From Coprobacillaceae bacterium (lineage in GTDB: Bacteria; Bacillota_I; Bacilli_A; Erysipelotrichales; Coprobacillaceae): a stretch of DNA of 32,000 nt. Below, piece after piece: positions 5,041-22,876 of the stretch. The stretch spans positions 1,680,001 to 1,712,000 of the forward strand of contig OY780959.1 of assembly GCA_963675915.1 (NCBI GenBank), read 5' to 3'. Both the position numbers and the translations under genes were made by a program. Under the pieces are notes generated by a model. The model was not told where the DNA came from, ran no database searches, and worked only from the letters and a program-made list of their open reading frames with translations. Within the stretch, counting starts at the first letter, position 1; every line of letters begins with the position of its first letter.

Positions 5041-5048
5041 TTATTCAC

Positions 5049-7220
5049 CTACTTAATTTCCTTTAAAATTCCAACTATATAATCTCTGACCATCATATAA
5101 TCGCCAATATCTATCTTTCCATTGTGATTAGCATCAGCTAAAATTCTTTGATTGTCATTAAGATTTACTTCCCCTACTAACGCATCTCTAATCATCATGT
5201 AATCTCCGATGTCTATTTGCCCGCTATTAGTCACGTCTCCATAAACATATACAGGTTCCGGTTCTAGCTCTGGCTCAGGTTCTGGCTCAGGTTCCGGTTC
5301 TGGCTCAGGTTCCGGCTCTGGTGTTTCAGTTGTTCCGTCACTAGGTTCTTCCACCGGTGTTTCATTTGGTTCCTCGGTAGTAGTATCACCAGGCTCTTCA
5401 GTCGGTGTTTCGCTTGGTTGCTCAGTAGTAGTATCACCAGGCTCTTCAGTCGGTGTTTCGCTTGGTTGCTCAGTGGTAGTATCACCAGGCTCTTCAGTCG
5501 GTGTTTCGCTTGGTTGCTCAGTAGTAGTATCACCAGGCTCTTCAGTCGGCTCTTCGACTGGTTCCGCCCCCTCATAATATGAAATTACATTCAAATCGGA
5601 TGTTTGAATATAGACATAATCTCTAGTGTAATCATAAAATGCTGCTGTAATACTGGTGAAATCCCTAGCTGTCCTATCGGTATTCAACGGACCATCTGAC
5701 TGGATTTTCACCCAACTCGCGTCTGGATTGCTTAACAGTAAAATCGGTGAATAAATCACATTATCCTGACCTACTGGAGCACCAGAAGCCGTGGTATATA
5801 CGCGATAAGATGATGTACTGGTCGCCAAATAAGTCGGTGTGATTGTTGAAACATAACCGATATCATAATTGTACAAATCGGTTGTTTCTACATTCTTCTC
5901 CTCAAGGTAATTTTTCAACATGTATCCCAGGCCAGCCGCTTTTTCACCCCAATAAGGATCAGAAGCATAGCGGACATTCAAGCCAGATTGTTTGTCGCCA
6001 AGATTGGTTCCAAAATATTTCCAGTTCCATGGATTCAAATATCCATAAGAAAGGAACCGGTTGGCATGGGAAACCACACCTTGATAAACTGTATCGTAAG
6101 AATATCCATTTGATGTATCACTGTCATAGACCGCATGACCAAAAAGGTTGTTTTTCAAAAATGCGTTCTTTGAACATCCATAATAAGATTCATTGATGGC
6201 TACCCCAAGTATCAATAGGGCATTGACACCGTACTCATTTTGGACTTTGATCAAATCTTCACCGATTCCAATCAATTTGGAATCATAAGGATCCAATCCA
6301 GAACCCGGAAGGCTTCGGTCAATGTAACTTTGGATTGAATTGTAATTCTGAGTTATTTTGTCATAAATATATTCGTTTAATTGAGTAGCTGAAAAGGTCG
6401 TCTTGCTGCGATGACTCAAGGCCTGATAATAATTGAAATATGGTTTGGCACTGTTAATGGAATTCGCATATGTATGATTCATATAATCATCAAGCATGAC
6501 CTTGTAGTCAGTATAGAAATAATGACCGTCATAACTGAAGTATGTTGCGCCATCAGTCATATATGATTGTTGATATCCAACAATATACGAAGCAGCCGCA
6601 TTGGTCATATTGGTGGTGATGTAGTGATAGATATTTCCATTGATAACCTTGTAACGGCTGGTATACAATGAATCGCTGTAGGCAACAACCTCAACTTTAT
6701 CAGCCGCCACCCGGCCAAATACACCGGCCTGTTTGAATAGAACATTGCCATTGGCATCAGTTCCAAGGTACGCGGCATCAGGTGCAATCCCACCATAAGT
6801 ATAGCCGCTGGAATATCCCGTTTCGACATTGGTATAAGTAGTAGTAACTCCATAAGTTTGATCAAAGATTACTACTCCGTATGTAATTCCATTACTGTTT
6901 GAGGTCACTTCTTCATCGGTGGTCCCCACATTGGCTGATTTCATTTGGACAACTTGACCGTCGCCGTCGTAAACTTTGTTAATTTCTTCAGTTTCCGAAG
7001 TATCAACAACTTCAGTCACTTCCAAAGCATTTTCCAGAGCGCTGGCATCAATACTGTTCTCTTCAAATGAAATTATATTTCCGTTTTCATCTACACTCAT
7101 GTAGATATTATCTTCGAGCATATATTGATCACCATAAACTTCCGTGTTGTCATTAAGTTGGACCAAAGTTGTTACCAGCGAAAATATGCATACCAAAGAT
7201 ATCAATCTTTTATATCTCAT
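5049..7220 (-). CDS. Secreted N-acetylglucosaminidase-domain (mannosyl-glycoprotein endo-beta-N-acetylglucosaminidase family) protein with acidic tandem repeats and C-terminal dockerin
   Basis: Signal peptide. The motif VNALLILGVAINESYYGCSKNAFLKNNLFGH fits the glucosaminidase A.ESg.G.S...NN.FG pattern. Four repeats of TEEPGDTTTEQPSETP and an (EP)n tract follow. The C-terminus GDVTNSGQIDIGDYMMIRD...DANHNGKIDIGDYMMVRD is a duplicated EF-hand-like dockerin signature. Confidence 0.75.
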   Translation of the reverse strand: MRYKRLISLVCIFSLVTTLVQLNDNTEVYGDQYMLEDNIYMSVDENGNIISFEENSIDASALENALEVTEVVDTSETEEINKVYDGDGQVVQMKSANVGTTDEEVTSNSNGITYGVVIFDQTYGVTTTYTNVETGYSSGYTYGGIAPDAAYLGTDANGNVLFKQAGVFGRVAADKVEVVAYSDSLYTSRYKVINGNIYHYITTNMTNAAASYIVGYQQSYMTDGATYFSYDGHYFYTDYKVMLDDYMNHTYANSINSAKPYFNYYQALSHRSKTTFSATQLNEYIYDKITQNYNSIQSYIDRSLPGSGLDPYDSKLIGIGEDLIKVQNEYGVNALLILGVAINESYYGCSKNAFLKNNLFGHAVYDSDTSNGYSYDTVYQGVVSHANRFLSYGYLNPWNWKYFGTNLGDKQSGLNVRYASDPYWGEKAAGLGYMLKNYLEEKNVETTDLYNYDIGYVSTITPTYLATSTSSYRVYTTASGAPVGQDNVIYSPILLLSNPDASWVKIQSDGPLNTDRTARDFTSITAAFYDYTRDYVYIQTSDLNVISYYEGAEPVEEPTEEPGDTTTEQPSETPTEEPGDTTTEQPSETPTEEPGDTTTEQPSETPTEEPGDTTTEEPNETPVEEPSDGTTETPEPEPEPEPEPEPEPEPELEPEPVYVYGDVTNSGQIDIGDYMMIRDALVGEVNLNDNQRILADANHNGKIDIGDYMMVRDYIVGILKEIK
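5254..5319. repeat. Hexanucleotide GGYTCN x11 microsatellite-like tract encoding (EP)n
   Basis: Read directly as ggttcc ggttct agctct ggctca and so on. In frame within the glucosaminidase CDS. Confidence 0.85.
5356..5547. repeat. 48-bp tandem repeat x4 (three near-identical units plus one diverged), coding
   Basis: The unit ggtgtttcgcttggttgctcagtagtagtatcaccaggctcttcagtc starts at 5356 (diverged copy), 5404, 5452 and 5500. It encodes the 16-aa unit TEEPGDTTTEQPSETP. Confidence 0.9.
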
Positions 7221-7410
7221 AAAACCCTCCGTTTATTTACAGAAAATATATTTTGTTACATAAAATATTCGGCAATATCCCATTTTTAATAAAAATAATT
7301 ACCCATATATATCTATATTACTACAACCGAGTACTAAAAATCAATGATTTATAAATATTAGTAAAGTAAATGCATCTTGAAAAAAGATTGATAAAATCAA
7401 GATATTTTCA

Positions 7411-9024
7411 TTATGTAACGGCTTTGATTTTTTTGTATACATAAAATAATAAAGTGAGTGTCCCCAAACCAAGCAGAATATCCTCATATATGTAACTAAT
7501 ACTATCTGATGTATCCACTATTGCGCTATTATTCTTAATAATGTGTATATTTCTAAATGTTATCCAATCTGTCATAATGTCGTTTTTGTAACACTGACAT
7601 TTTGCCACCAGAACCCCCTTACAATCGCTGACTATAGCTTCAACCTGATAAACCGTCTCATCATAGGAGTAATCCGGATTATCCCCGGCGACTTCATTTA
7701 TCTGAAAATTATAATTTCCGGGCTGACTGAAAGTAAGATCAAAGACCCCTGTCCCAACAGTTGACCCCTCGGCGTTGATGGTTAAATACTTGTTTTTTAT
7801 AGTTTTCGGTTGATTCGTATCAATCTGACTTAGTTGAAATGTAAACGAGATAATTGGATTATTGTCACCACCCACTATCTCCTTTTTAATCTGAATTTGC
7901 GAAGTCACCGGGACCGCTTGATAAATGTTTTCAAACTCAATATTATTTTCAATATCTCCATTCTTGGTGATTGTTATAGTGGGAATTCCATAACTATCAG
8001 TAACCATCTTGACAGTATATTCACTTTGATCATATGTATAGTAGGCTGAGTCATTGGGTTCTTGCCTGATATTCACCGCATATTCGGTATCAGGATACAT
8101 ATCAATCCCAAAACTACAGTTATCAGTGGCGGGGTAATCAATCTCTATTTCGCTGTTGAGCAACTCACCAAAGGGAAGAATGTCGAATATCGCTATTTTG
8201 AACTTTTCTGCCATCGGGTTCAATCCGCTTATCGAAAGCGTCGGATATATCTCTACTCGAGTGATATTACTATTATAAATATTTAAGTAGCGGATATCGG
8301 AGACACTTTCACCATCTTTGCTAATCGTTCCTTGATGAACCTCCAAATCCCCAGACCCATCATATTCGACCTGGTAGGCCACTGTGTATCGGGACTCGTC
8401 AAAACTAAAATTTTGATAATCCTGTTTATTTTGATTCAGGGTAAGGAGATATGATCCGGGTTTGGTTACGTGATAAGCCATGCCGGCGTTAATGATCACT
8501 TCGCCGTTTGAGTTCACATAATTGACAACTTCTACAGTCTCACCCCCAGGAATTGTCAGCAAGGTTTCAATCTCAAAATCAGGATAGTTTCCCTTAGCCA
8601 GAACCGCTCCATTATACAAATCAATCTTGGCATCCGGAAATTCAAGCTGACCGTTCATGACTAGCTTATTGATGATCTTGATTTGATTGCCAACCTGTTC
8701 ATATGTTGTTTGATAACCAGGGACTTGATCCTGCATTACTTCATAATCGTATGCAACCCCCTCACCATATTGTTCAAGTCCGTTAAAGGTTAATATCGGT
8801 TTGGTAACCTGACAGGTCTCAATAACTTCAAAATTGTCCTGACCTGGCCGGTGCCCAAGCAGATGAATATTAACTGGTTTGAATCCACCATAGTCAAAAT
8901 CGATTGTAACAACAATACTATTAGTCCCACTTAAAGCCCGAACATTGTTTGCGTTTAGACAGGTTACAATAACAACTGCAATCCCTGAAACAAGAATCGA
9001 AAATAGAATTTTTTTGATTTTCAC
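7411..9024 (-). CDS. Surface protein with CnaB-type domain and Spy0128/FctA-like pilin isopeptide-linkage domains and a non-LPXTG C-terminal anchor
   Basis: Signal peptide MKIKKILFSILVSGIAVVIV. The CnaB-like segment is HLLGHRPGQDNFEV...YDYEVMQDQVPGYQTTY. There are repeated modules of the type FTFQL...GNYNFQINEVAGDNPDYSYDETVYQVEAIVSD. The C-terminus is LLGLGTLTLLFYVYKKIKAVT. Confidence 0.65.
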   Translation of the reverse strand: MKIKKILFSILVSGIAVVIVTCLNANNVRALSGTNSIVVTIDFDYGGFKPVNIHLLGHRPGQDNFEVIETCQVTKPILTFNGLEQYGEGVAYDYEVMQDQVPGYQTTYEQVGNQIKIINKLVMNGQLEFPDAKIDLYNGAVLAKGNYPDFEIETLLTIPGGETVEVVNYVNSNGEVIINAGMAYHVTKPGSYLLTLNQNKQDYQNFSFDESRYTVAYQVEYDGSGDLEVHQGTISKDGESVSDIRYLNIYNSNITRVEIYPTLSISGLNPMAEKFKIAIFDILPFGELLNSEIEIDYPATDNCSFGIDMYPDTEYAVNIRQEPNDSAYYTYDQSEYTVKMVTDSYGIPTITITKNGDIENNIEFENIYQAVPVTSQIQIKKEIVGGDNNPIISFTFQLSQIDTNQPKTIKNKYLTINAEGSTVGTGVFDLTFSQPGNYNFQINEVAGDNPDYSYDETVYQVEAIVSDCKGVLVAKCQCYKNDIMTDWITFRNIHIIKNNSAIVDTSDSISYIYEDILLGLGTLTLLFYVYKKIKAVT

Positions 9025-9265: not shown

Positions 9266-9295
9266 TTGATAATACGTGCTTTTTTTTGATAGAAT
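9266..9295 (+). promoter_or_regulatory. Candidate sigma-A promoter of the pel-cotH-VTC operon
   Basis: TTGATA (9266-9271), an 18-nt spacer, then TAGAAT (9290-9295). Lies about 37 nt upstream of ATG 9332, which has SD AGGGGGAG. Confidence 0.4.
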
Positions 9296-9331: not shown

Positions 9332-11193
9332 ATGAAAATATTAATTATTGGCCAAAACAGCGACTTCAACAAACACCTCATCGACGAAATCCGCAAAGAT
9401 AACGATGAGGTTTTTCTTCTAAGCAAAGAAGATTTCAAACCTGGCACCAAACCTAATTTGACATATCGTCATTTCAAATACACCAAATTCCGCAACCTGA
9501 TCATCTCAAGCATCAACCCGATATCATCATTATTGGTGATATCGAGCCGGATGGAACCTACCTTAATGAAATGTCAGCCTTTGTCCAGTCAGCAAATGAA
9601 AATGACATCAGAATTGTTTTTCTTGCCAACGGAGATTTTGACACCGACATGGCAGAAATCATCATCAAACAAGCAAATAATCACCTGATTTTAAAAGCGG
9701 ACAAACTTTACTTTGGAAACGATTTTAAAGCTGAAAATAAAATCATCAGTCCTGTTCATTTTCTCGATGCCATCTATGCACTCAAAGTCACTTTCAATAC
9801 TTTGATCAAAAACAAGACATACACCCTATGTGGTGAAGCAGCCTACAACAGTCTTGATTTGGCTCAGGGTAAAGTTTTGAAACTTCAAGACTGCACTATG
9901 GGGAAAGATTTTAGCAACGATTTTGGTTGGAAAGCAATCCGGGACATATCTGATTACATCAATAATCAACCACAAAAAAAGTCCGCTATCGCGGTTGAAT
10001 CAAGAAAGGAAAACCGTTTGCCGGTTCAATTGGTCGAAAACGCCTCCTTGTTTTCAGTAACGCTGCTGATAAACTACCTTACCAAAGACAGCGCTCTGTT
10101 CGCCCATATCGATTTCACAATCATTTATATTGTCGTGATCTCACTTTTCTACAATATGTATTTCATAATTTCTGCAGTTGTACTCGGAATTTTGATGTAC
10201 CTGGGATTCAATACTGCCAACATCTATAACCTGATGGCGTTGAATTTGTCTCTTAGCACCCTGATTCATATTCTTGAATATCTGGTCACCGGTTTTTTGG
10301 TTGGCTATGTGGTTACCCAACTAGATACGAATAACCGGAGACTAAAAGAAGACAACGAATCTTTGCTTGAGGACATCGAGGAAGTGATCACGATCAATAA
10401 CAAAAACGTGGCCATCAAAGATGAATACAGCAAAAGATTGCTTACCAGTACCAATTCACTGCCCCAGTTATATAAATACGTCAATGATATTGTTTCAAGT
10501 GATCTGGAAATCATCTATTACGAGTTACTGAGCGTAATGCAAAAATTGATCAAAACCGATAATATCCGGATTTATTCTTGCAACAGCCATGAAGGTTTCG
10601 CCCGGCTTGAAGCAACTACCGATACCAAGGCATTGAATTCGCTCAATATCTCCGATCACCAGTTCCTCAGATATGTATTTGAAAACCAGGACATCTATAC
10701 CGGTGATCACTTCAATAACGAGGTCGACATTGTTGCGCCCATCGTCTTCCAAGGCCAGGTTATCGCCCTGATCATGATTGACGAATTGGAATTCTTCGAC
10801 AAGACCCTTTATCAAATCAACCTGATCCGGATGATTTGCAATCTTAGTGCCAACTCCATCGAACAGGCCCGAATCAACCAGCAATCCAACTTCATTGAAG
10901 GCAGCCGGGTGTTCGCATTCGAATATTTCAGCAAACTTTGTCAGGAACATCGCGAAAAAGATGCCCAGTACAACATCACTACCACTCTGGTCAAATGTCA
11001 AAGCAACCGCAGCTTTGTCAGCCTCTATAACGACATTTCCCGGCAGTTGCGCCAAGTTGACACCTTGGGCCTTAACTCCAAAGATCAACTTTGCATTCTC
11101 TTCCATAATGTTTCAACTGCCAATGTCCAGCTGGTTTTGAACCGCCTGAAATTTGATAATGTCGAATTCAAAGTGCTTGAGGGGCTTGATTAA
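9332..11193 (+). pseudogene. pelD: PelD-like c-di-GMP receptor (degenerate SDR/Rossmann N-domain, 4 TM, GAF, degenerate GGDEF), interrupted by a 1-nt frameshift near 9499
   Basis: Two overlapping track ORFs (9332..9688 and 9571..11193) join cleanly. The first frame reads ...KYTKFRNL and ends at 9499; the second reads DHLKHQPDIIIIGDIEPDG from 9499. One extra G would fuse them. Downstream are TM helices (IIYIVVISLFYNMYFIISAVVLGILMYLGF...), a GAF-like block (...VDIVAPIVFQGQVIALIMIDE) and a GGDEF-like C-terminus with RQVD. The position, first in a pelEAFG cluster, matches Gram-positive pelD. Confidence 0.7.
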
Positions 11194-12035
11194 TGGAAAT
11201 TGCAATCATCCTCACTGTCAATCTGATTGTTTCAATCATCTTCTTGGCAGTCAAAAACGAATATTCACATCGGATTCCCCTATTGGGCCTGTTTGTCTTT
11301 ATGCCCATCTGCGGAATCACGATATTTGCCCTGGCCGATTACTTGTACCGTCGGTTCGACCGACCCGAATATGACAAGAAAACCCTGAACTACCGGCTTC
11401 CCCAACAATTTGTTTCCAACCAAGTCAATATGGATGAACAACTCGATATCGTCTCAATCAGCGACCTCAAGAATTTGGCATCATCAAGTGAGAAACGGGA
11501 AGTGGTCCTGAACCAGCTCAAGGAAAATCTTACCCGCAACTATGCCCATATCATCGAAATGCAAAGCGACAGCGACAGCGAGACTGCTCATTACATCGCT
11601 GCTGCCAAGATGGAATCCTATGATCATTTCATTCGCAATCTCGAGACGGCCCGCCAAAAATATTACCATGACAATTCTACTTTGGAAGACTACCTGGACA
11701 AAATCCGGGAAACCATCGACTCCAAACTCCTTAGCTCTGTTGAACAGGAGAAATACCAGAATTTGTATCTGCAGTTATCTCAGGGACGTTTTGACGATAA
11801 CAGTTACAAATATATGTACGATTTGAAAATGTATGATGAACTATTGGAAATTAATGATATCCAGGAAAACGAGACTCTTTTTCTTTTGGTGCTAAAATAC
11901 CATTACAACAATAAAAACAAGATCGAATTCCAACGCCAGCTTAACAAGATGATTGTCAGCCAATTGACTTTTTCATATGATGCCTTGGAAATCATCAGGA
12001 CCTATAAGTCGAGGTATCTCAATGATCCAGCTTAA
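11193..12035 (+). CDS. pelE: PelE-like inner-membrane helical-repeat protein
   Basis: Two N-terminal TM helices (IAIILTVNLIVSIIFLAV, LLGLFVFMPICGITIFALADYL) precede a helical, TPR-like soluble region. TAATG overlap with pelD. The call is mainly positional (pelD-E-A-F-G order). Confidence 0.55.
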   Translation: MEIAIILTVNLIVSIIFLAVKNEYSHRIPLLGLFVFMPICGITIFALADYLYRRFDRPEYDKKTLNYRLPQQFVSNQVNMDEQLDIVSISDLKNLASSSEKREVVLNQLKENLTRNYAHIIEMQSDSDSETAHYIAAAKMESYDHFIRNLETARQKYYHDNSTLEDYLDKIRETIDSKLLSSVEQEKYQNLYLQLSQGRFDDNSYKYMYDLKMYDELLEINDIQENETLFLLVLKYHYNNKNKIEFQRQLNKMIVSQLTFSYDALEIIRTYKSRYLNDPA

Positions 12036-13419
12036 AAGATTCGCGGTTATCCTGGTCATCTGCATCTCGCTTGGGATCATGGCAATCAGCCAGATTCTGC
12101 CTCAAACTCCCAAAGCGGCGCCATCCTCGCCACTTGAATACCGCCACAGCGAAATCGGCTATAACGAATATTTTTATTTGGTAGCAGGCGATGACAATCC
12201 CGTCAAAGATGCCACGATTGAGTTGCTTGAAAGCAAGAAATTCACCTATTCAACCGATCTTAAAGACCTGAATTCCAATTCTGTCTTGATATTTACTTCG
12301 GCCAACATCGCCGACTATCTGGATTTAAAAACTGTTGCCTCATTGCCCAATTATGTCCTGTTTGCGGGTGGCATTGGCGCCAACAGTGAAAACAGCTATT
12401 TGAACAATGTTTTGGGAATAAACCAAAAGCATGAATTGGTAAGACTTGACTATCTGATGTTTAAAGGAACCGAGGTTGAGCTTAGTGACTTTTACAATAC
12501 CGCTTTGATTGATTTACGAGAATCGACCCGGATAATCCTCGATGGTTCCAATCCGATCATCTTCAAAAACAACAATTTCGCTGTCATCAATTCATCCTTG
12601 GCTCTTAGGAGCGGATTCATATTGATGGCACTTGAAAATCTGGTTCCGGATTTGATCTATCCGATTACTGCCACGACCAATATCCTGATTGGGAACATCC
12701 CGGTGAATTTTGCCAGTCTCGATGTAGTTTTGGAATATCGAACCAATGACTTCATCCAGGAAGTGTTTCTGCCTTCCATCAAGGCCCTCGCTCTTTCTAA
12801 CAATCTTAATTACAGCATCGGTCTTTTGAAATACAGCGGAAGTTTCACCGCAACCGATATTCCCCTTTTAAACAGCATTACAGCTGACGATTTCTTGGAT
12901 TTTATTTATGAAGGAGATTTCTCCGGTGATTTTATCGAAGACAATCTAAATTTAAGCACGAACTATATCAACTGCCTCTATGGTAGTATGAACCAGTCCA
13001 AGTATCAGGATATCTCGATCGATTACCATCAATTCCGTGATTTTAGGGACCTTGATATCATCAATGATCAATTGCTCAATCGCGAATTTTTGCTTAGAAT
13101 CGACACGCTTGATTTTATCAGTGATTATGAGAGCAATCTCGACAAGCTAACCAAACTGCTTGGCAGTGTCGAAAGCCCCAGCTCGTCAATCGGTCAATAT
13201 TTGAATATTCGAGAAGCCTACCAAGAAGTTGACTACACATCCAACCATCAGGATGATGAATTGGTGATAAAAGTTGACAACGAAGCCGGTCAGAGTTTCT
13301 TTTTGAAAAGCGCCGCCGCAATATCGGTGACCAACGGAGATTTCCAAAAAGTTCCAGGTGGCTATGTCATCACAGTCAAAGATGTTGAAGTGATTATCAA
13401 GATAGGAGAAGAACGATGA
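12022..13419 (+). CDS. Membrane-anchored extracytoplasmic protein in the PelA-deacetylase (PelA_DA / DUF2194-like) position
   Basis: The preferred start is ATG 12022 (MIQLKRFAVILVICISLGIMAIS, SD GAGG 7 nt upstream) rather than the track start at 11977. The 3' end overlaps the pelF start (ATGA). The assignment is positional; I cannot see the CE4 His-His-Asp motifs. Confidence 0.45.
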   Translation: MIQLKRFAVILVICISLGIMAISQILPQTPKAAPSSPLEYRHSEIGYNEYFYLVAGDDNPVKDATIELLESKKFTYSTDLKDLNSNSVLIFTSANIADYLDLKTVASLPNYVLFAGGIGANSENSYLNNVLGINQKHELVRLDYLMFKGTEVELSDFYNTALIDLRESTRIILDGSNPIIFKNNNFAVINSSLALRSGFILMALENLVPDLIYPITATTNILIGNIPVNFASLDVVLEYRTNDFIQEVFLPSIKALALSNNLNYSIGLLKYSGSFTATDIPLLNSITADDFLDFIYEGDFSGDFIEDNLNLSTNYINCLYGSMNQSKYQDISIDYHQFRDFRDLDIINDQLLNREFLLRIDTLDFISDYESNLDKLTKLLGSVESPSSSIGQYLNIREAYQEVDYTSNHQDDELVIKVDNEAGQSFFLKSAAAISVTNGDFQKVPGGYVITVKDVEVIIKIGEER

Positions 13420-14831
13420 GAATCTGTTTTATATGTGAAGGATCATATCCCTATGTACGAGGCGGGGTATCGTCCTGGATTAATACAATCATCACTGCAA
13501 ATCCCGATTTGGAGTTTGCAATATTTTCGATTGCCACAACCGAAGCGGAAATGTCCGAATATAAATACGAAATCCCGGATAACGTCAAAGAAATCAAGAC
13601 TTTCTACATTTCTTCACAAACCATTTTGGAAAATGTCAAAAAAATCAAATTGACCAGAATGGACCTGGCAATCCTCGATCATTTGCTTTTGGGAAATGGC
13701 GATGATATCGACTGGAAAGCCACTTTGGATTTCATGAAGGAACATCGTGAACATCTAAGCGACATTTTGATGTCGCCCCAATTTTATGAGCTGGTGCTCA
13801 AAACCTACCAGGCCAAATATGGAAATCTCTCATTCAATGATTTCTTATGGAATATGCGCTCAATGTACCATCCTTTCATGAAATTGCTTTCTACCTCGGA
13901 CATCGAAGCTGATATCTATCATCCGGTTTCAACCGGTTATGCCGGGATCCTCGGGGCGATATTCTCTAAAATTCACGAAAAGCCGCTATTGCTTTCCGAA
14001 CATGGAATCTATACCCGGGAACGCGAAGAAGACATTATCAAATCCCAGTGGCTCAAAGGTAACTTCAAGGATATCTGGATTAGCTTTTTCAAACGTTTAT
14101 CCTATATTGCCTATCATCAGGCCGAAAAAGTCACCACTTTGTTCGAAACCAATAAATCCCTGCAAATCGAACTAGGATGCGATGATCATAAAATTGAAGT
14201 GATTCCCAATGGCGTCGATACTGAAACTCTGGGGAACCTCAAACCCCGTTCCGACAAAAGCCGGAAATATTTCAATATTGGGACAGTCTTAAGAATCGTC
14301 CCGATCAAAGACGTAAAGACAATGATCTTCGCATTTCAGATTGCAAAGGCCCAAATCCCCAACGCCCGGCTTTGCATTATGGGAAACTACGATGAAAGTC
14401 CCGGATATTATCAGGAGTGTCTTGATATCGTCGCTCATCTGGGAATCAGTGATATCATCTTCACCGGTCAGGTTGACATCAAGGAACATTTGAATGAGTT
14501 CGACCTGCTGCTGCTCACATCAATATCCGAAGGCCAGCCTCTGGCAGTTATTGAAGGTATGGCGGCCCGCAAGCCTTTTATCTGCACAAACGTCGGTTCC
14601 TGTCAGGAACTGCTGTTAAGCGATGACGGATTCGACCAAGCCGGATTCATTGTTCCAATTATGGGAGTTGAGGAATTGGCCGATAAAATTGTCTACTGCG
14701 CCAACCATCCTGACGAAATCAGGCAAATGGGCTTGAACGGCCAAAACCGGGTGAACCGCTTTTACCGCAGTGAAATATTTTTGAATCGATTTAAAGAAAT
14801 TTACAAGGAGATGGCACCATGGCAGGCATAG
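13416..14831 (+). CDS. pelF: PelF glycosyltransferase (DUF3492 + GT4)
   Basis: The N-terminus MRICFICEGSYPYVRGGVSSWINTII is the hallmark PelF/DUF3492 motif (EG.YPYV.GGVSSW). The C-terminal half has a GT4 Rossmann signature (LLLTSISEGQPLAVIEGMAARKPFICTNVG). Confidence 0.9.
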   Translation: MRICFICEGSYPYVRGGVSSWINTIITANPDLEFAIFSIATTEAEMSEYKYEIPDNVKEIKTFYISSQTILENVKKIKLTRMDLAILDHLLLGNGDDIDWKATLDFMKEHREHLSDILMSPQFYELVLKTYQAKYGNLSFNDFLWNMRSMYHPFMKLLSTSDIEADIYHPVSTGYAGILGAIFSKIHEKPLLLSEHGIYTREREEDIIKSQWLKGNFKDIWISFFKRLSYIAYHQAEKVTTLFETNKSLQIELGCDDHKIEVIPNGVDTETLGNLKPRSDKSRKYFNIGTVLRIVPIKDVKTMIFAFQIAKAQIPNARLCIMGNYDESPGYYQECLDIVAHLGISDIIFTGQVDIKEHLNEFDLLLLTSISEGQPLAVIEGMAARKPFICTNVGSCQELLLSDDGFDQAGFIVPIMGVEELADKIVYCANHPDEIRQMGLNGQNRVNRFYRSEIFLNRFKEIYKEMAPWQA

Positions 14832-16186
14832 GTTTTGAAATCAGGAAAATGTTCGGAAAGAAGACAATTGCTTCAGGCATAAAGGGAACATTCTACGCAA
14901 TTTTTGCAACAATCGGCCCGATAGTAATCTTCATGGCAATGTCGATTATCTTGAGGTTATTTATGGAAATGATGGCGATCTCGTATCCGGACAAGCTGCT
15001 GTTCAATTCCAGCTTCACTTACTGCTTCCTAGTGGCAATTATCACCTCCAGCTTGTTCACCAATACGGTTTCCCGTTACGTTGCCGACAAAATATACGCT
15101 GACCGTGAAGCCGATATCTCTGCGAGCATCATCGGCGTCCTGACTCTTGGAAGCATCATCAGCGGGACTGTGATGGCGATAATGGTCTGGCGGATGAGTC
15201 AAACCGGAGCCTACAGCGCCGCGACACTTCTGGCCTATTATCTAACCGGGGTTCTGGCATGCAATGTCTATAACATCATGACCTATGTTACCGCAATCAA
15301 GGAATATCAAAAGATCTTCAGAGCCTTTCTACTCGGCCTTTCCAGCACATTGATTCTGGTTAATGTCTTTGCCTATCTTAATCTTGAATTCATGTTCAAT
15401 TTCTATCTGGCGATTGCAATCGGTTTTTTCATCATTTTAACAATGGTAATCTATGAATGTGTCAAAGCATTCAACCGTCCCAGTGATAAAATTTTTGAGT
15501 TTATTTCTTATCTCAACAAATACCCGCTTTTGTTTTTTACTTCTTTTATTTTCACCACCGGTTTTTATATTTCCAACATCATCTACTGGAATATCTCCGA
15601 CAATGCGCTTCAAGTGAATATCTTCAGGACATTACCGGCATATGACTTGGCAATGATGTTGGCGATAATGGCCAATCTTCCGGCCCTGGTAATCTTCGTA
15701 GTGAAAATAGAGACCAGTTTTTACGAGAAATATATCGAATATCTTTCCGCTTTGAACAACGATACTTACAAGGTGATTGAGAAAAAGCGCAAAAACATGA
15801 TCCGGGAACTCAGTCTTCAGTTATTTTTCATCTATGATCTGCAGCTGATTTTCTGCCTGTTCCTCCTGATCATTTCATATATCATCTTTCCATATTTGGG
15901 AATTTCCAATCAGACTTTTTTCTATTTCAGAGTCCTGATCATCGCCCTCTATGCCTTGTTTTCAATGCAGTTTACGATGATCATCCAGTACTATTTCGTT
16001 GACTACAAATCAACTTTTATCGCGGCAATAATCTACTTTGCTGTCGAAGTGATCTTATGTCTGATAGTTGGTTACAATTATTATCAATACCCGCTTCTGG
16101 TCGGCAGTTTGGCTGGATGGGCAATCAGTTTCATCACATTGAGAAATTATCTCAAGAAGGTCAATGTGAATTTATTATGCAGGTAG
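14819..16186 (+). CDS. pelG: PelG polytopic membrane protein (PST/MOP-like exporter component)
   Basis: Begins MAGIGFEIRKMF, the conserved PelG N-terminus (MAGIGFELRK). About 12 predicted TM helices. Overlaps the pelF end by 13 nt. Confidence 0.9.
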   Translation: MAGIGFEIRKMFGKKTIASGIKGTFYAIFATIGPIVIFMAMSIILRLFMEMMAISYPDKLLFNSSFTYCFLVAIITSSLFTNTVSRYVADKIYADREADISASIIGVLTLGSIISGTVMAIMVWRMSQTGAYSAATLLAYYLTGVLACNVYNIMTYVTAIKEYQKIFRAFLLGLSSTLILVNVFAYLNLEFMFNFYLAIAIGFFIILTMVIYECVKAFNRPSDKIFEFISYLNKYPLLFFTSFIFTTGFYISNIIYWNISDNALQVNIFRTLPAYDLAMMLAIMANLPALVIFVVKIETSFYEKYIEYLSALNNDTYKVIEKKRKNMIRELSLQLFFIYDLQLIFCLFLLIISYIIFPYLGISNQTFFYFRVLIIALYALFSMQFTMIIQYYFVDYKSTFIAAIIYFAVEVILCLIVGYNYYQYPLLVGSLAGWAISFITLRNYLKKVNVNLLCR

Positions 16187-16194
16187 GTGAATAA

Positions 16195-17898
16195 ATGAAA
16201 AAACTTATTAAAGATTATTTCCCACTGACAACCGTTTTAGTAGCTGCGGTACTTTTTGGATCCCTGTACGTCGCAAATCTTGAAAAAGTCAACGCTCCGG
16301 CCAGGATTGAGAGTGACCCTGCCGATTTTGACCTCGTTACAACCGGAACCATCCATGACAACCAGGCCATCTACGACTATGACTCAACCATTTATGATGT
16401 CTATCTCCGGGTTTTCCCAACCAAAGATGAATCTGGAACTACTCTGGTTTTCGATGACTTTCAAAAGCACGAGGCTTTGGATCATGATTATAACCCGGTC
16501 TTGAACTGCAATATTCAGATTCTTGATGAAGATCAAAGCCTGGATCCGATGATTGTGACTTCAATGACAAACGCCACAATCAGAGTAAGAGGTAACTCAG
16601 CCAGAGGTGAAGCAATCAAATCATATAAAATAAAAATGGATGATGATACCAACGGATTCAAAGGACAATACAGCCTCAATATCAACAAACATATGGATGA
16701 CATAACCCGAGTCACCCAAAAATTTTGCACCGACCTTTTGGCATTGACCAATACCTTGATATCCTACCGTACTAATTTCATGCGGGTTTATATTCTTGAT
16801 GATGCCAAAAACTCCAATGAATATGAATATTATGGTCTCTTTACCAATTCAGAACAAGCCAATAAGACATACTTGGGGATCCATAACCTGGGATCATCAT
16901 CGAATCTTTACAAAGCGGAAGATTTTTCATTCAATCAGGATGACCGGCTAAAATCAACCGCAAATCCCCTTTATAAAAAGAAAGATTTCGAAGAAGTGCT
17001 TTCGATCATGGAAGGTGATTCCAATCACGAACCGCTCCTCGCTATGATCGATGCCATCAACGACAACTCACTTGGCATGGATGACCTGTTTGGCCAATAT
17101 TTGAATCAGGACAACTATCTTGATTTTCTGGCTTTCAACATCCTGGTTGGTGGCGATGATATCCTTAACCATAACTTCTTGATTTATAACCCAAATAACA
17201 GTACCACTTTCTATCTTATCCCTTATGACTTCGACAAGAATATGCAGGTTGAGGATGCCAGCTACATTCCCTATTCGCTGATGGGCGGCCAAAAATACAA
17301 CATGTCACCTTTGCACCATAAGTTTTTGACCAGCGAAAATGGCTTTGCCCAATTGAAACAGCGAGTTTTGGAACTAAAGGACAAATTCCTCACCAGTGAT
17401 ATCCAAGTACTGCTGGACTCATATCAGGAAGTTCTAAGCAAAACCATTTACTTAAGCCCCGACCTGTCCAGTCTGAAGCAAACACCAAGCCAGACTTTGG
17501 CCTATCTCCAGTCTTATCCGGAATTGATCGAGGATAATTATACCAGGTTCCTCAATGCATTTGACTATCCGGCACCGATTTTCACAGCCACACCGGTATT
17601 CAATCAAGACCGGACCCTTCATCTGGCCTGGGATAACTCTTATTCATACCAAGGTCTCGATCTGCATTATCAGGTCCGGATCTACAACGACTATGCGAAG
17701 TCAACTATTATTTACCAAAACGACAGTGTGATTGATACCGCCACCGATACCGATGTGACTTTTGGCCCCGGAACTTATTATCTCGAGGTCAACAGTGTCG
17801 ACAGTGCCGGTCACGTTCAGCCCTCATTGGAACATTTTGAATTCAAATCGACCGAATTCGTCTATGTATCCGGTCTAATGGAGTTTACCCTGCAATGA
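16195..17898 (+). CDS. cotH: CotH-family atypical protein kinase with N-terminal membrane anchor and C-terminal FN3-like domain
   Basis: N-terminal TM/signal anchor LTTVLVAAVLFGSLYVA. CotH-type blocks IRVRGNSARGEAIKSYKIK, YLDFLAFNILVGGDDILNHNFLIYNP and FYLIPYDFDKNM. The start is 8 nt after the pelG stop, with SD AGGTAGGTGA. Confidence 0.8.
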   Translation: MKKLIKDYFPLTTVLVAAVLFGSLYVANLEKVNAPARIESDPADFDLVTTGTIHDNQAIYDYDSTIYDVYLRVFPTKDESGTTLVFDDFQKHEALDHDYNPVLNCNIQILDEDQSLDPMIVTSMTNATIRVRGNSARGEAIKSYKIKMDDDTNGFKGQYSLNINKHMDDITRVTQKFCTDLLALTNTLISYRTNFMRVYILDDAKNSNEYEYYGLFTNSEQANKTYLGIHNLGSSSNLYKAEDFSFNQDDRLKSTANPLYKKKDFEEVLSIMEGDSNHEPLLAMIDAINDNSLGMDDLFGQYLNQDNYLDFLAFNILVGGDDILNHNFLIYNPNNSTTFYLIPYDFDKNMQVEDASYIPYSLMGGQKYNMSPLHHKFLTSENGFAQLKQRVLELKDKFLTSDIQVLLDSYQEVLSKTIYLSPDLSSLKQTPSQTLAYLQSYPELIEDNYTRFLNAFDYPAPIFTATPVFNQDRTLHLAWDNSYSYQGLDLHYQVRIYNDYAKSTIIYQNDSVIDTATDTDVTFGPGTYYLEVNSVDSAGHVQPSLEHFEFKSTEFVYVSGLMEFTLQ

Positions 17899-18605
17899 GA
17901 TTCGAAGGTAATAATCTCAGAAACGAACTTAAATATTATATCAGTTATAATGAGTACCTGGTTTTGAAGTCGCGCCTGAAACCTTTGATAAAGGCCGACC
18001 CCAATATGCCAGATGAGCAAGGGTACCTGATTTCTTCGGTCTATTTTGACGATCTTTGCAGCAGTGCCTACCGCCAGAAGATTCGCGGCGACCGCTTCAG
18101 AAACAAGTTTCGAATCAGAACATATCAGCGCAGTGACGCAAAAATTAATTTGGAGATGAAATCAAAGTTCCATGACTTCATCGCAAAACAGTCCGCTCCT
18201 CTTTCCCGCAAAGAATTTGAGAGCATTTTGGAAGGTCGGTATGAATTCCTTATCAATAGAAATGAAGAAGTATGCCAACGGCTTTTGCTGCACAATCGGC
18301 TTCACTTGCTCAAACCCAAAGTGGTGGTGGAATACCTCCGGGAAGCTTATGTATTCAAAGCAGGAAATGTCCGGATAACATTCGACAAAAATCTGGCCGC
18401 CAACGACACGACCATGAATATCTTCAGTGATCAGTATTCAAGCCACGGAGTCATGCCCGATGACCAGATGATTCTTGAAGTTAAATATGATGATTTTCTG
18501 CCGAATATGTTGAGTGTGATATTAAAAGATACAATCAGTACCCGCGGCGCTATCAGCAAATACGTTATGTGCATCGATGATAAAAGGAGTAAATACAGAT
18601 GGTAA
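17895..18605 (+). CDS. VTC-domain (CYTH/triphosphate-tunnel, polyphosphate-polymerase-like) protein
   Basis: NELKYYISYNEY..., SSVYFDD, FRIRTY, INLEMKSK, VVVEYLREAY, RITFD and ILEVKYDDFLP together give the alternating charged beta-strand pattern of bacterial VTC-domain proteins. ATGA overlap with cotH. Confidence 0.75.
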   Translation: MRFEGNNLRNELKYYISYNEYLVLKSRLKPLIKADPNMPDEQGYLISSVYFDDLCSSAYRQKIRGDRFRNKFRIRTYQRSDAKINLEMKSKFHDFIAKQSAPLSRKEFESILEGRYEFLINRNEEVCQRLLLHNRLHLLKPKVVVEYLREAYVFKAGNVRITFDKNLAANDTTMNIFSDQYSSHGVMPDDQMILEVKYDDFLPNMLSVILKDTISTRGAISKYVMCIDDKRSKYRW

Positions 18606-19264
18606 CATTCAGTGATATTTTTAAAAACAGTTTCCTCGAGTCCAGCGGGAACCTGACAACCGCAAGTTTTGCAATGAGCATGCTTGCCTGTTATATGTGC
18701 GCGATGATCATTTATTTCATCTATCGCAACTTTTACAAGGGCGTTATTTACAACAACAATCTCAATATCCTGTTGGTTCTGGTTTCCCTGATAACCTGCT
18801 TTATCGTGATGGTAATTTCCAGCAACATCGCTTTGTCACTCGGGATGGTTGGGGCGCTCTCGATTGTCCGCTTCAGGACAGCAATCAAGGACCCGCTTGA
18901 TGTCGGTTTTCTTTTCTTCTCAATCAGTGTCGGAATCGTCACCGGCGCCGGGCTCTATCTCTTTGCCCTGGCCGGAACTTTGATGATTGCACTTGCGTAT
19001 ATCATCTTGATCAATATCAAAACCAAAAAACGTATCTATATGCTGTTGGTTTCTTATGAAAAGGAAGTTGAAGCCCAACTTGAAACGCATTTGCAACCGC
19101 TAAACAAGATATTGAAAAACAAGACTTCAACGCGAGAGTCGACCGAAGCTACCTATGAAATCAAAATTTATAATGAAAATACCAGTTTCCTCGATGAGAT
19201 ATCCGCTTTGCCGGGAGTGCATTCCGCCATGGTGGTTGATTTCACCGGAGATTATATGGAGTAA
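18599..19264 (+). CDS. DUF4956-family membrane protein
   Basis: Four TM helices and the family motif LSLGMVGALSIVRFRTAIKDPLDVGFLFFSISVGIVTGAG. Overlaps the VTC gene by 7 nt. SD AGGAGT lies 8 nt upstream. Confidence 0.75.
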   Translation: MVTFSDIFKNSFLESSGNLTTASFAMSMLACYMCAMIIYFIYRNFYKGVIYNNNLNILLVLVSLITCFIVMVISSNIALSLGMVGALSIVRFRTAIKDPLDVGFLFFSISVGIVTGAGLYLFALAGTLMIALAYIILINIKTKKRIYMLLVSYEKEVEAQLETHLQPLNKILKNKTSTRESTEATYEIKIYNENTSFLDEISALPGVHSAMVVDFTGDYME

Positions 19265-19303
19265 AAAAATCCGTTATTGAAAATAATCAATAACGGATTT
19301 TTA
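19263..19303. terminator. Bidirectional intrinsic terminator shared by the pel-cotH-VTC operon and the convergent Rieske gene
   Basis: Perfect 12-bp stem ATCCGTTATTGA (19269-19280) / TCAATAACGGAT (19287-19298) with loop AAATAA. An A6 run precedes it and a T-run follows. Confidence 0.85.
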
Positions 19304-20464: not shown

Positions 20465-21136
20465 TTATTTTGAACTAGCTTTTTTAGCAATTACAACCAC
20501 AACAGCTGCAGCCACCAAAGCTGCTCCACCATAAAGGAAGTAAGTGGTCAAGTTTGATTGTGACGCTTCTGTCCAAGTAACGATAGCTACTGGAGAGAAA
20601 CTTGTAAAAGTAGCAGTGATTTCACCATTTGTTACAACGGTATCAACAGCTTCCCATACTCCGGTATCTTCATTAAAGTGCAAAACTTGGTAATGGTCAC
20701 CCTCAGATACGTTAGGACGATCGAAAGTAACTTGAACTGAACCATCTTCAAGAGTTACAAAATTTTCATCAGATACCAAATCAAGATTCATCATTTCAGA
20801 TACATCGAATTCCGCTCCGGCAATATCCATGATATCTTCAATAACTGCTTGGGCATCGTCTTTATCCAACATCGCTACAACAGCTTCCAGTTTGGCACCT
20901 GACAATTCAGGATACATTTCTGCAATTGCTTCTTCATTGGCTTCAATCATTGTAACCAATACTTCAACCGCATCAAGATTGATGACGTTACCTTCACTGG
21001 TAACAACTACGGTTCCCTGTGAGAAAGTCCCAGTAGTCTCAACCCCAACAGTCGGACTTGGCGCCGCCATTACAGTACTTATACAAAGAGCGCAACTTAG
21101 AAAAAACACATTAAGTGCTACGACTAATTTTTTCAT
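20465..21136 (-). CDS. Secreted, highly acidic protein with C-terminal TM anchor (function unknown)
   Basis: The preferred start is ATG 21136 (MKKLVVALNVFFLSCALCISTVMA, SD GGGGGA 7 nt upstream) rather than the track start at 21163. The protein is D/E rich. The C-terminus is LYGGAALVAAAVVVVIAKKASSK. Confidence 0.6.
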   Translation of the reverse strand: MKKLVVALNVFFLSCALCISTVMAAPSPTVGVETTGTFSQGTVVVTSEGNVINLDAVEVLVTMIEANEEAIAEMYPELSGAKLEAVVAMLDKDDAQAVIEDIMDIAGAEFDVSEMMNLDLVSDENFVTLEDGSVQVTFDRPNVSEGDHYQVLHFNEDTGVWEAVDTVVTNGEITATFTSFSPVAIVTWTEASQSNLTTYFLYGGAALVAAAVVVVIAKKASSK

Positions 21137-21168
21137 ACAAATTCCCCCTAATTTATTACTCATTCTTT

Positions 21169-22125
21169 TTAATTTACTTCATTATAGAACATTTCAATCA
21201 AAATGTCATCCATTTTTTGCTCATCTATGTAAAATTCTTCATATGTGTCACCCATTTGTTTTTCGCCTGGCACAAACGCGGTTTTCGTGAAGTCAACATC
21301 ATAATCCGACAAGTCGTCAATCTGTTCGCCCGTTAGATCGGTCATGACATAATCATCGAGCATCGTCGAAAAAGTATCATAGAGATTATCAAGATTCTTG
21401 GACTTGACTGTATTGACCAAAGCACTGAGGTACTGGACTTGACGTTCCATTCGTTCTGCATTGCCGCCAATGCCCTCAATAACCCGCCCCCGAACATATC
21501 TTTCGGCCTGATGGGCGGTCAGGTTCAGGGTTTCCCCTGCAACAAACTCCGGTTCAATGTCGGTGTAGTCTTCTGGAATGGTAAGAGTGACTCCGCCAAC
21601 CGCATCATTGATAATTCCAATTGACTCGATGTTGAGATTCAAGTAGCCATCGATTCTCAGGTCATTTAACATTGCGCTGACAGTATTGACCATCGCCCAA
21701 CAGCTCTGAGTACCACCCTTGGCAACTGAATATTGAAGACAAAGTTGGGCAAACGAAGTACCAATTACATTGCCATGGATGTCATACAGATCGATATCCA
21801 CCATGCTGTTTCTGGAAATCTGCAGCATTTTGGCTTTTTTGGTACTTTTATCCAACGAAAGCAAGATGATGCTGTCAGCCTGATTGGTGTAATTTCCGTA
21901 TTCTTCTTTTTGGATCAGATCATTGCTGTCGATTCCGATAAAAAGAATATTGGTCAGATCCGTGTTATAACGGTAGCGGCTACCGTTGTACTCAACAATA
22001 TTTGCCTGTGATTGGCCATTGTCGATAATCATTGGAGTCGTTTCGCGGGTTAAAGCATAAATCCCTCCACCCACTACTGCAACAAGCACAACAGCGATAA
22101 TAATATTTTTCCAAGACTTAATCAT
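21169..22125 (-). CDS. LytR-CpsA-Psr (LCP) family glycopolymer transferase
   Basis: An N-terminal TM helix followed by LCP motifs: NILFIGIDSND, DSIILLSLDKSTKKAKMLQISRNSMVDI and ...ERYVRGR. Confidence 0.85.
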   Translation of the reverse strand: MIKSWKNIIIAVVLVAVVGGGIYALTRETTPMIIDNGQSQANIVEYNGSRYRYNTDLTNILFIGIDSNDLIQKEEYGNYTNQADSIILLSLDKSTKKAKMLQISRNSMVDIDLYDIHGNVIGTSFAQLCLQYSVAKGGTQSCWAMVNTVSAMLNDLRIDGYLNLNIESIGIINDAVGGVTLTIPEDYTDIEPEFVAGETLNLTAHQAERYVRGRVIEGIGGNAERMERQVQYLSALVNTVKSKNLDNLYDTFSTMLDDYVMTDLTGEQIDDLSDYDVDFTKTAFVPGEKQMGDTYEEFYIDEQKMDDILIEMFYNEVN

Positions 22126-22127
22126 TA

Positions 22128-22862
22128 TTAGCGTCCTAGAAGATTTCTTTTGGTTTGCAAGTCATTGTCATGTAACGGAATGACCGCCAAAGTATTGACA
22201 TCGAGATATTTTTCAATATCGTCTGGTGTTTTCAAGTTGTTGTTCAACAAGAATCTTCCGACAATGAATCCGGCTGAAAGCAAGAGTCCCACTGCCGCCC
22301 CGATAACTGTGTTTCGGGACTTGCTTGGACTTACTGGGACATAATTGGCCTCAGCTCTTTCAACTGTTGTCGGCTCATCAGACTGCATTATATAAGCCAT
22401 TTGAGATGCGGTTTCTTCGGCCACTGCATTGGTCACCCACGATGCGATTTCCGGATCAGTATAGGTAGCGCTGATAGTCAAAATCCGGGTGTTTGCAGCA
22501 TTGCTTACACTAATCATGCCTATGATTTCACTACGAGTCAATTCAATATTATACGTGCGGTCAATCTTATCGATTGCTCCGTCAATAACCGGTTTTGAGG
22601 TCGCGATGATGGCGAAGTCTTCTGTCAATTCCGATCCCAGCTGCAAATCAGCCAATGATGTAACGCTTGTTGTTTTGGTCAGGATATATAGCATTGAATC
22701 CGATTTGTATTCCGGACTGACAAAGAAAATCGTATATCCCAATGCCAGTACTCCGACTAGAACAGTGGAGATTGCAATGAGAATCCAATTTCTCAACAAG
22801 ACAAAAAACAATTCCTGTAAATCTATTTCCGTCTCATCTAAATATTCTTCATATTCATTCAT
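22128..22862 (-). CDS. cpsC: Wzz/CpsC-type chain-length / BY-kinase transmembrane modulator
   Basis: Two-TM topology (ILIAISTVLVGVLALGYTIFFV and VIGAAVGLLLSAGFIVGRFLL) with the YKSDSMLYI motif typical of CapA/CpsC. The stop lies 2 nt before the LCP start. Confidence 0.8.
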   Translation of the reverse strand: MNEYEEYLDETEIDLQELFFVLLRNWILIAISTVLVGVLALGYTIFFVSPEYKSDSMLYILTKTTSVTSLADLQLGSELTEDFAIIATSKPVIDGAIDKIDRTYNIELTRSEIIGMISVSNAANTRILTISATYTDPEIASWVTNAVAEETASQMAYIMQSDEPTTVERAEANYVPVSPSKSRNTVIGAAVGLLLSAGFIVGRFLLNNNLKTPDDIEKYLDVNTLAVIPLHDNDLQTKRNLLGR

Positions 22863-22876
22863 TTCCCATCTTCCCC

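Follow-up and report, generated by a model that had tools for sequence, protein, structure and literature searches.

We analyzed a 32,000-nucleotide stretch of a Coprobacillaceae genome (contig OY780959.1, positions 1,680,001 to 1,712,000; hereafter the window), in which the open reading frame (ORF) listing shows a run of co-directional genes on the forward strand at positions 9332-19264. We assign this run with high confidence to a Gram-positive Pel exopolysaccharide operon of a known accessory-gene class: pelD, pelE, a pelA(DA)-like gene, pelF and pelG are followed by cotH, a VTC-domain gene and a DUF4956 gene (Table 1). A group of accessory genes of this kind, the second one described, encodes a CotH-like kinase, a poly-phosphate polymerase, a DUF4956 protein and a DUF4832 protein and is contiguous with pelDEA(DA)FG (PMC7112168). 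Whitfield et al. 2020 reported it from streptococci and from clostridia, found a variant of it in bifidobacteria, and noted that its presence correlates with an N-terminal epimerase-like extension of PelD (PMC7112168). The original prediction for this locus held that a coupling of Pel genes to the cotH-VTC-DUF4956 trio had not been described. That claim falls, since the arrangement was published in 2020 (PMC7112168) and tested genetically in 2025 (PMC12345266). The window therefore adds no new kind of system: the locus is a divergent, possibly broken further example of a published arrangement and not a discovery.

Table 1. Features of the Pel locus, in window coordinates, and surveyed loci (L numbers) that carry PelG~CotH fusions or the trio away from Pel genes
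Feature	Position	Strand	Evidence and remarks
Promoter-like site	9266-9295	+	TTGATA-18-TAGAAT with TG, upstream of pelD; top-scoring match; suggestive only
pelD, frameshift-interrupted	9332-11193	+	ORFs 9332-9688 (118 amino acids) and 9571-11193 (540 amino acids)
Frameshift site in pelD	9515-9516	+	AA where the sister genome (L001) has AAA, codon 62; pairwise DNA alignment with L001
pelE-like, 280 amino acids	11193-12035	+	Two N-terminal transmembrane helices and a helical region; phmmer matches to genes at the same position
pelA(DA)-like, 465 amino acids	12022-13419	+	Signal anchor; homology to the N-terminal half of DUF2194; deacetylase motifs absent
pelF, GT4 glycosyltransferase with DUF3492 N-domain	13416-14831	+	NF038011, 1.1e-108 (above the 100-bit cutoff); PF11997/DUF3492, 6.8e-78
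pelG, polytopic membrane exporter-like	14819-16186	+	PF16933, 4.1e-89, full length (positions 1-449 of 452); hydrophobic segments
cotH, kinase family, 567 amino acids	16195-17898	+	PF08757, 1.3e-36 (127 bits; cutoff 23.8); N-terminal signal anchor
VTC-domain gene, 236 amino acids	17895-18605	+	PF09359, 2.3e-38; no transmembrane segment; Vtc4-like model
DUF4956 gene, 221 amino acids	18599-19264	+	PF16316, 3.7e-14 (53.2 bits; cutoff 30.6); about 4 transmembrane helices and a soluble C-terminal domain of about 75 residues
16-bp perfect hairpin with A-run and T-run flanks	19265-19302		Between convergent genes; likely bidirectional terminator
PelG~CotH fusions	L053:6733-9999; L059:6889-9978; L067:6871-9993; L070:6901-9999; L071:6879-9998; L072:6883-9999; L074:6861-9998; L078:6892-9999		
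Trio without Pel genes within 8-10 kb	L017:8263-11075; L021:8588-11373; L066:9980-13531; L040:6769-11451; L076:9989-13677; L077; L080; L081		

Genes and junctions of the Pel unit

Family assignments were made by searching the window proteins with Pfam and NCBIfam hidden Markov models (HMMs). Of the eight families proposed originally, PelF, PelG, CotH, VTC and DUF4956 are each recovered by a model of their own, and PelD, PelE and the PelA-like protein have no match in either collection, even at E <= 1. A search of the PDB with the window PelA-like protein and with the PelD of a sister genome likewise found nothing. The identity of these three proteins rests on their position and on phmmer matches to syntenic orthologues, which were obtained at 41 loci for PelD, 35 for PelE and 11 for the PelA-like protein. 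For PelE there is no curated family at all, and the only domain match, a weak one to TPR_14, occurs in an orthologue (L003).

The genes are tightly joined. pelD and pelE have 1 nt in common (TAATG, 11193), pelE overlaps the pelA-like gene by 14 nt (12022-12035, with the start at 12022 as called in the sister genome), the pelA-like gene and pelF meet in an ATGA (13416-13419) and pelF overlaps pelG by 13 nt. Between pelG and cotH lies a gap of 8 nt, with an AGGTG Shine-Dalgarno motif overlapping the pelG stop; cotH and the VTC gene again share an ATGA, and the VTC and DUF4956 genes overlap by 7 nt. The ORF coordinates thus reproduce every junction of the earlier account. Its picture of eight joined same-strand genes stands as regards order and junctions and gives way at pelD, which is split by a 1-nt deletion. 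The strong terminator proposed after DUF4956 is indeed found, as a perfect 16-bp hairpin followed by a T-run, and adjoins a convergent Rieske gene whose end lies at 19301. A scan of the sequence from 9332 to 19264 detected no other plus-strand terminator-like site, and hence none that would separate pelG from cotH. Regarding the single promoter proposed at 9266-9295, this is the top-scoring site of the region. However, promoter-like matches number 31 in total, compared with 28.5 in shuffled sequence, and because the total does not exceed the shuffled expectation we treat the call as suggestive only. From this layout, the pel-cotH-VTC-DUF4956 run is probably one transcription unit.

The break in pelD, which leaves two ORFs in different frames, is defined by comparison with the sister genome (about 2.57 Mb), which encodes an intact PelD of 620 amino acids (P0002). 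Programmed frameshifting was considered as an explanation and rejected because the sister gene is read in one plain, intact frame. The deletion at 9515 falls within a short homopolymer, and the assembly is of the metagenome type; it could be either genuine, and then inactivating, or an error of the consensus. With pelD split, the system may be off or impaired, unless the assembly is wrong or translation restarts at the ATG at 9571.

PelD appears to comprise a degenerate SDR/epimerase-like N-domain and four transmembrane helices, followed by regions that resemble GAF and, in degenerate form, GGDEF, the latter with an RxxD I-site. Pfam GAF and Epimerase domains are seen in PelD orthologues, and none is seen in the window protein or its sister. 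The N-terminal 250 residues or so nevertheless align to orthologues that match PF01370 (2.5e-63 in L037; 1e-10 in L003); in the window this SDR-like domain has been shortened by four deletions and escapes Pfam detection. The I-site has been better preserved: R574-x-x-D577 and R605 (sister-genome numbering) are kept in 31 of 32 PelD orthologues, with the same spacing as R363, D366 and R395, the residues mutated in B. cereus PelD (PMC7112168). Given this conservation, control of PelD by cyclic di-GMP (c-di-GMP) is plausibly retained. An upstream c-di-GMP riboswitch was also considered; at gathering score, no Rfam family was found in the window other than group II intron domains.

Within its family, the PelA-like protein is degenerate. 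Bacillales PelA(DA) orthologues match DUF2194 over their full length (2e-199) and carry the CE4-like motifs IDDFP, HGYNH and SHFxHP. In orthologues of the clostridial type, the His motifs are gone and the match to DUF2194 is confined to its N-terminal half. The window protein, too, aligns with the DUF2194/PelA(DA) family along the N-terminal half only (hhalign E 3.7e-4); it has IGNIPVNF in place of IDDFPAP, and none of the three CE4-type motifs is present. Since these motifs are absent, we predict that it is not a deacetylase but a catalytically dead positional homologue, and their loss would leave a polymer that is probably largely N-acetylated and neutral. The Pel of Streptococcus intermedius behaves as predominantly N-acetylgalactosamine (GalNAc), which would make that polymer neutral (PMC12345266). 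In one surveyed locus (L025), a motif-less PelA(DA) coexists with a separate CE4 gene of the Polysacc_deac_1 family, located after DUF4956 (11616-12533), which might compensate for it. The DUF2194/PelA(DA) profile (alignment A3) matches a CE4 esterase and also, at E 2e-104 and over nearly its full length, chain A of PDB entry 9ZAU, a protein of 593 amino acids deposited merely as 'Predicted membrane protein, putative'. An experimental structure of the PelA(DA)/DUF2194 family therefore exists.

Among the accessory proteins, CotH aligns weakly to B. cereus CotH (5JD9; E 3.5e-4). An exact-protein look-up gave no record for the window CotH. Its residues D322 and D345 are the equivalents of the catalytic D228 and D251 of B. 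subtilis, with an identical spacing of 23 residues, and are kept in 58 and 63 of 65 homologues, respectively. The N-terminus of the protein reads MKKLIKD and continues into a hydrophobic segment (residues 8-32). Such an anchor is present in 61 of the 63 surveyed CotH proteins, the other two falling just below threshold; a lipobox-like Cys occurs in at least 21 proteins. Given the anchor, the kinase-fold domain of CotH is predicted to be extracytoplasmic.

The VTC domain is the sole Pfam domain of the VTC protein. Its sequence profile found no relative in the PDB at E <= 0.01, so that a structure model was needed to establish a link to Vtc4. The best Foldseek matches of this model (pLDDT, a per-residue confidence score, 88.7) are the Vtc4 structures 3G3R, 8I6V and 7YTJ, with an E value of 1e-12 and TM-scores of 0.68-0.72 against the Vtc4 tunnel domain, and the top 13 matches are all Vtc4, Vtc2 or VTC-complex chains, ahead of other triphosphate tunnel metalloenzymes. 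We regard the protein as a putative cytoplasmic Vtc4-like triphosphate-tunnel enzyme. Its closest relatives, from clostridia or unnamed metagenome sequences, are only about 57% identical to it. The DUF4956 protein combines its four or so membrane helices and soluble tail with a weak similarity to MgtC and an invariant motif, SLGMVGALSIVRxR..K.P.D.

Distribution of the trio with and without Pel genes

We searched GTDB species representatives with a VTC alignment, which matched at least 588 loci. The survey covers the 80 best of these; nearly all are from Bacillota, the rest being a few metagenome-assembled genomes (MAGs) with other labels. Loci were annotated with purpose-built HMMs; the PelG and CotH models exclude long ORFs, and domain-level matches were used. 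Pel genes and the trio are colinear in 43 of the 80 loci, 40 of them with the complete order pelD-E-A-F-G-cotH-VTC-DUF4956 and three truncated at contig ends. These loci come from Lachnospiraceae, Clostridium, Erysipelotrichaceae, Oscillospiraceae and Trichococcus, as well as from Paenibacillus, Brevibacillus, Cohnella and several genera of Bacillaceae and Planococcaceae, a spread that argues against an adjacency restricted to a handful of close relatives. VTC adjoins DUF4956 in 78 of the 80 loci. A cotH gene lies beside this pair in all 43 Pel loci; among the 37 others, about 20 proved to have one, in two cases recognized by Pfam only, which bears out the earlier statement that the trio recurs in Firmicutes.

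Among the 43 Pel loci, 11 have a DUF4874+DUF4832 gene after DUF4956, four of them confirmed by Pfam and seven inferred from an ORF of matching size and position. In the window, no DUF4832 match was obtained among the scanned ORFs of 110 amino acids or more, and DUF4956 is followed by the terminator and the convergent Rieske gene; the sister genome likewise lacks a DUF4874+DUF4832 gene. Other genes found after DUF4956, in Pel or trio loci, encode a GGDEF cyclase (L029, 11516-12673) or a GH114 hydrolase and an HD-GYP-type protein (L038, 11432-14065).

In eight of the 80 loci, PelG and CotH form a single ORF of 1029-1088 amino acids. The hosts, all Bacillales, are Paenibacillus abyssi and two other Paenibacillus, Rummeliibacillus stabekisii, two Sporosarcina, Psychrobacillus psychrodurans and Ca. 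Pristimantibacillus. At the junction of the two moieties lies a lipoprotein-type signal peptide (for example, LVLSAC or LLTAC). The eight loci form one clade on the VTC tree, which argues for a single fusion event kept across genera. The main text of PMC7112168 makes no mention of this PelG~CotH fusion.

The loci lacking Pel genes are heterogeneous. Some have the order CotH-VTC-DUF4956, with a CotH of 460 amino acids, and are nested on the VTC tree inside the clostridial Pel-linked clade; others, in Paenibacillus and Cohnella, have the order VTC-DUF4956-CotH. Still others seemingly contain the pair only, although two of those checked, L040 and L076, carry divergent cotH genes. The trio outside Pel loci may thus come in either gene order and sometimes includes large CotH proteins with LTD domains. 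Neighboring genes encode an ABC sugar transporter (L017), a purple acid phosphatase (L066), GH114 and HD-GYP proteins, a rearranged PelF-like cluster or housekeeping functions. The 2025 study states that the three-gene synteny is not found outside Pel loci (PMC12345266); our non-Pel trio loci disagree with this statement. NELoc-2 of C. perfringens, described below, is a likely older case in the literature. In a Bacillaceae MAG (L027:8337-19017), CotH-VTC-DUF4956 come first and are followed by a stand-alone NAD-dependent epimerase, a PelF-like glycosyltransferase of 586 amino acids (DUF3492 and GT4) and three proteins without Pfam domains. This could be a second architecture joining the trio to a PelF-type synthase.

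Possible functions of the accessory genes

Raju et al. 2025 deleted each accessory gene in S. intermedius C1365 (PMC12345266). The CotH mutant had less cell-associated Pel and the DUF4956-type mutant more Pel, both aggregated to below half of the wild-type level in sputum medium, and the DUF4832 protein proved to be an active glycoside hydrolase (PMC12345266). Taking these results together with our own, we propose a working model for the window. PelF would polymerize a GalNAc-rich chain in the cytoplasm, and the membrane proteins PelD, with its c-di-GMP I-site kept, PelE and PelG would export it; with the deacetylase motifs of the PelA(DA)-like protein lost, the polymer would stay largely N-acetylated and neutral. 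CotH would be a catalytically competent kinase-fold enzyme, anchored on the outer face next to PelG, and would act at the exit site on the polymer, the machinery or a wall component, thereby tuning the amount of cell-associated Pel. The cytoplasmic Vtc4-like enzyme and the DUF4956 protein with its four transmembrane helices would be an obligate pair handling phosphate or polyphosphate species at the membrane, and possibly feeding the external kinase, which outside the cell has no obvious ATP source. We consider a known-class Pel accessory operon together with this model, taken as a whole, to be a reasonably probable explanation of the locus. Our confidence in its mechanistic part is low, because the VTC mutant of S. 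intermedius has no phenotype and because the trio often occurs without Pel.

Several observations weigh against this explanation. The promoter-like match upstream of pelD is no better than the chance background, co-transcription is read from sequence alone, and the topology of the proteins comes from hydropathy. We know of no biochemical activity for any trio member in any Pel system. In the 37 surveyed loci whose fetched flanks contain no Pel genes, the trio or the VTC-DUF4956 pair is present all the same, and its core function is therefore not specific to Pel. Finally, none of the four accessory genes is required for Pel production in S. intermedius, and the mutant in the polyphosphate-polymerase (VTC) gene shows no phenotype (PMC12345266). 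These two results argue against a linear, Pel-essential pathway from VTC through DUF4956 to CotH.

A stronger version of the model would make the trio a self-contained extracellular phosphorylation device: VTC would make a phosphoryl carrier from ATP, DUF4956 would translocate it, and the external CotH would transfer phosphate at the PelG exit, either to Pel as it emerges or to a target in the wall or matrix. The carrier may be polyphosphate or another compound, and the PelG~CotH fusions would mark the site. Although we think this improbable, it would, if true, explain how a kinase works without ATP outside the cell and provide the first VTC-type polyphosphate synthase/translocase in bacteria. 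Phosphorylation is given a different role in the hypothesis of Whitfield et al. 2020, according to which CotH regulates the Pel machinery by protein phosphorylation, replacing c-di-GMP control (PMC7112168). The sole demonstrated activity of a CotH protein is indeed that of a Ser/Thr protein kinase on spore-coat proteins, the published substrates being CotB and CotG, and the catalytic Asp residues are conserved. However, the predicted place of the CotH domain is outside the membrane, while PelD and PelF have their regulatory domains in the cytoplasm; the I-site of PelD is kept here as in nearly all orthologues, so that no substitute for c-di-GMP is needed; and CotH is dispensable for Pel production in S. 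intermedius. We therefore judge this regulatory role unlikely. Another idea, put forward in the original prediction, is that the operon co-produces a cationic, deacetylated Pel and an anionic polyphosphate, which would associate in the matrix. By family and fold, the VTC protein is Vtc4-like, it is always paired with a membrane protein that could export a product, and the Pel of P. aeruginosa is cationic, as published. To our knowledge, however, polyphosphate synthesis has yet to be demonstrated for any VTC-domain protein from bacteria. Moreover, the PelA(DA)-like protein of the window has none of the DD, HGYNH and SHFxHP motifs of its Bacillales orthologues, the S. intermedius polymer appears to be mostly neutral GalNAc, and deletion of the polyphosphate polymerase altered neither aggregation nor Pel level there. 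These observations weaken the idea to the point that we hold it to be very improbable.

The trio might also be an autonomous cell-surface or phosphate module, unrelated to Pel and hitch-hiking on the pel promoter. The Pel-less loci, with their sugar-transporter, purple acid phosphatase and housekeeping neighbors, would fit such a view, as would the VTC mutant without a Pel phenotype and the NELoc-2 locus of C. perfringens, where VTC, a 226-residue membrane protein and CotH lie beside a chitin-synthase-like gene. Yet the position immediately after pelG is kept in 43 species-level loci of several orders, the in-frame PelG~CotH fusion has been maintained across several genera, deletion of CotH or DUF4956 alters Pel level and aggregation, and the rearranged variants still lie beside PelF-like, GH114 and HD-GYP genes, all of which makes independence from Pel rather doubtful. 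A last possibility, compatible with the other readings, is that the locus is decaying and non-functional in this strain. Besides being frameshifted at 9515 when compared with the sister gene, PelD has a shortened, degenerate N-domain, the PelA-like protein is motif-less, both are below Pfam detection, unlike their orthologues, and the DUF4832 hydrolase gene is missing; S. intermedius AP2 is published as having lost both Pel and aggregation through a naturally occurring nonsense mutation in pelD. On the other hand, the remaining seven ORFs are unbroken and their junctions coupled, the sister genome keeps an intact pelD although its proteins are degenerate in the same way, and the homopolymer indel could be a consensus error. 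Furthermore, S. thermophilus JIM8232 is published as forming a pel-dependent biofilm with a PelD that lacks the entire N-terminal domain. Decay in this strain is thus conceivable, but we lean against it.

Returning to the preferred reading of a Pel accessory operon, the PelG~CotH fusion clade physically ties CotH to the exporter. Together with the near-universal CotH anchor, the VTC-DUF4956 pairing, the Pel-less trio and the loss of deacetylase motifs in the clostridial branch, this fusion narrows the range of possible mechanisms.

Surroundings of the locus and comparison with known systems

The Pel unit is flanked by other cell-surface genes. Upstream and divergent from it, a minus-strand set (790-9024) encodes a Cna_B/FctA isopeptide pilin-like protein (7411-9024), a glucosaminidase with a type I dockerin (5049-7220), a protein with a Cadherin-like domain (3691-5040) and a protein of 575 amino acids whose N-terminus has a methylation motif of the type IV pilin kind (790-2517). 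The dockerin would suggest a clostridial host of the cellulosome or amylosome type, and the nearest homologues point to Clostridia as well. Just downstream, also on the minus strand, is a capsule-type polysaccharide locus (20465-24284 and 29830-31449) with two LytR_cpsA_psr genes and genes for a CpsB/CapC phosphatase, a CpsD-like P-loop protein and a Wzz chain-length protein. It is interrupted, between the first LytR gene and cpsB, by a minus-strand group II intron (24573-29694; 5' domains at 29405-29694, 3' domains at 24573-24650). The reverse-transcriptase/maturase ORF of this intron is itself split into 28798-29373 and 24656-25528 by an opposite-strand insertion carrying DUF6431, an rve-family transposase (26304-27551) and an AAA_22/TniB-like ATPase (27533-28354), so that one mobile element lies inside another. 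A megablast of the intron/transposon region against plasmids yielded only short matches to intron RNA.

The spore CotH of B. subtilis and B. cereus (5JD9) belongs to the same Pfam family, and the equivalents of its catalytic D228 and D251 are kept in the window. The window protein has, however, a signal anchor and an extra C-terminal region, whereas spore CotH is not described as secreted. As the authors of the mBio 2025 study point out, streptococci carry the same module yet do not sporulate. In yeast, the VTC complex consists of a Vtc4 catalytic tunnel domain and a Vtc1-type membrane channel. The window VTC protein is of the same Pfam family, with Vtc4 as its best model match, and its obligate pairing with a small polytopic membrane protein suggests a yeast-like logic of synthesis coupled to translocation. 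Unlike eukaryotic Vtc4, it has neither an SPX domain nor a transmembrane domain of its own, and DUF4956 is unrelated to the transmembrane domain of Vtc1.

In C. perfringens NELoc-2, VTC, a 226-residue membrane protein annotated as 'tubulin/FtsZ' and CotH lie beside a chitin-synthase-like glycosyltransferase (PMC2879425). From its size and location, we infer that the 226-residue protein is a DUF4956 member. NELoc-2 differs from the window in that its synthase is of another family, its VTC pair is duplicated and Pel genes are absent (PMC2879425).

Two Pel operons bear a closer resemblance. The pelDEA(DA)FG operon of B. cereus ATCC 10987 has the same five-gene core order and the same PelF and PelG families as the window (PMC7112168). 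The accessory genes that flank it are a divergently transcribed gene resembling the PelA hydrolase and galE, the cotH-VTC-DUF4956 group being reported in other taxa (PMC7112168). In the S. intermedius cluster, pelDEA(DA)FG is accompanied by SIR_1594 (CotH), SIR_1593 (polyphosphate polymerase), SIR_1592 (MgtC/ACT-type membrane protein) and SIR_1591 (hydrolase) (PMC12345266). Compared with this cluster, the window lacks the DUF4832 hydrolase of the SIR_1591 type, its PelA-like protein is shorter and motif-less, and its pelD is frameshifted; conversely, the window PelD keeps the RxxD c-di-GMP I-site region that is absent from streptococcal PelD. Common to both are pelD-E-A(DA)-F-G followed by cotH, the VTC/polyphosphate-polymerase gene and a DUF4956-type protein with four transmembrane helices, a CotH predicted to be secreted or extracytoplasmic, and a PelD with a degenerate SDR-like N-domain.

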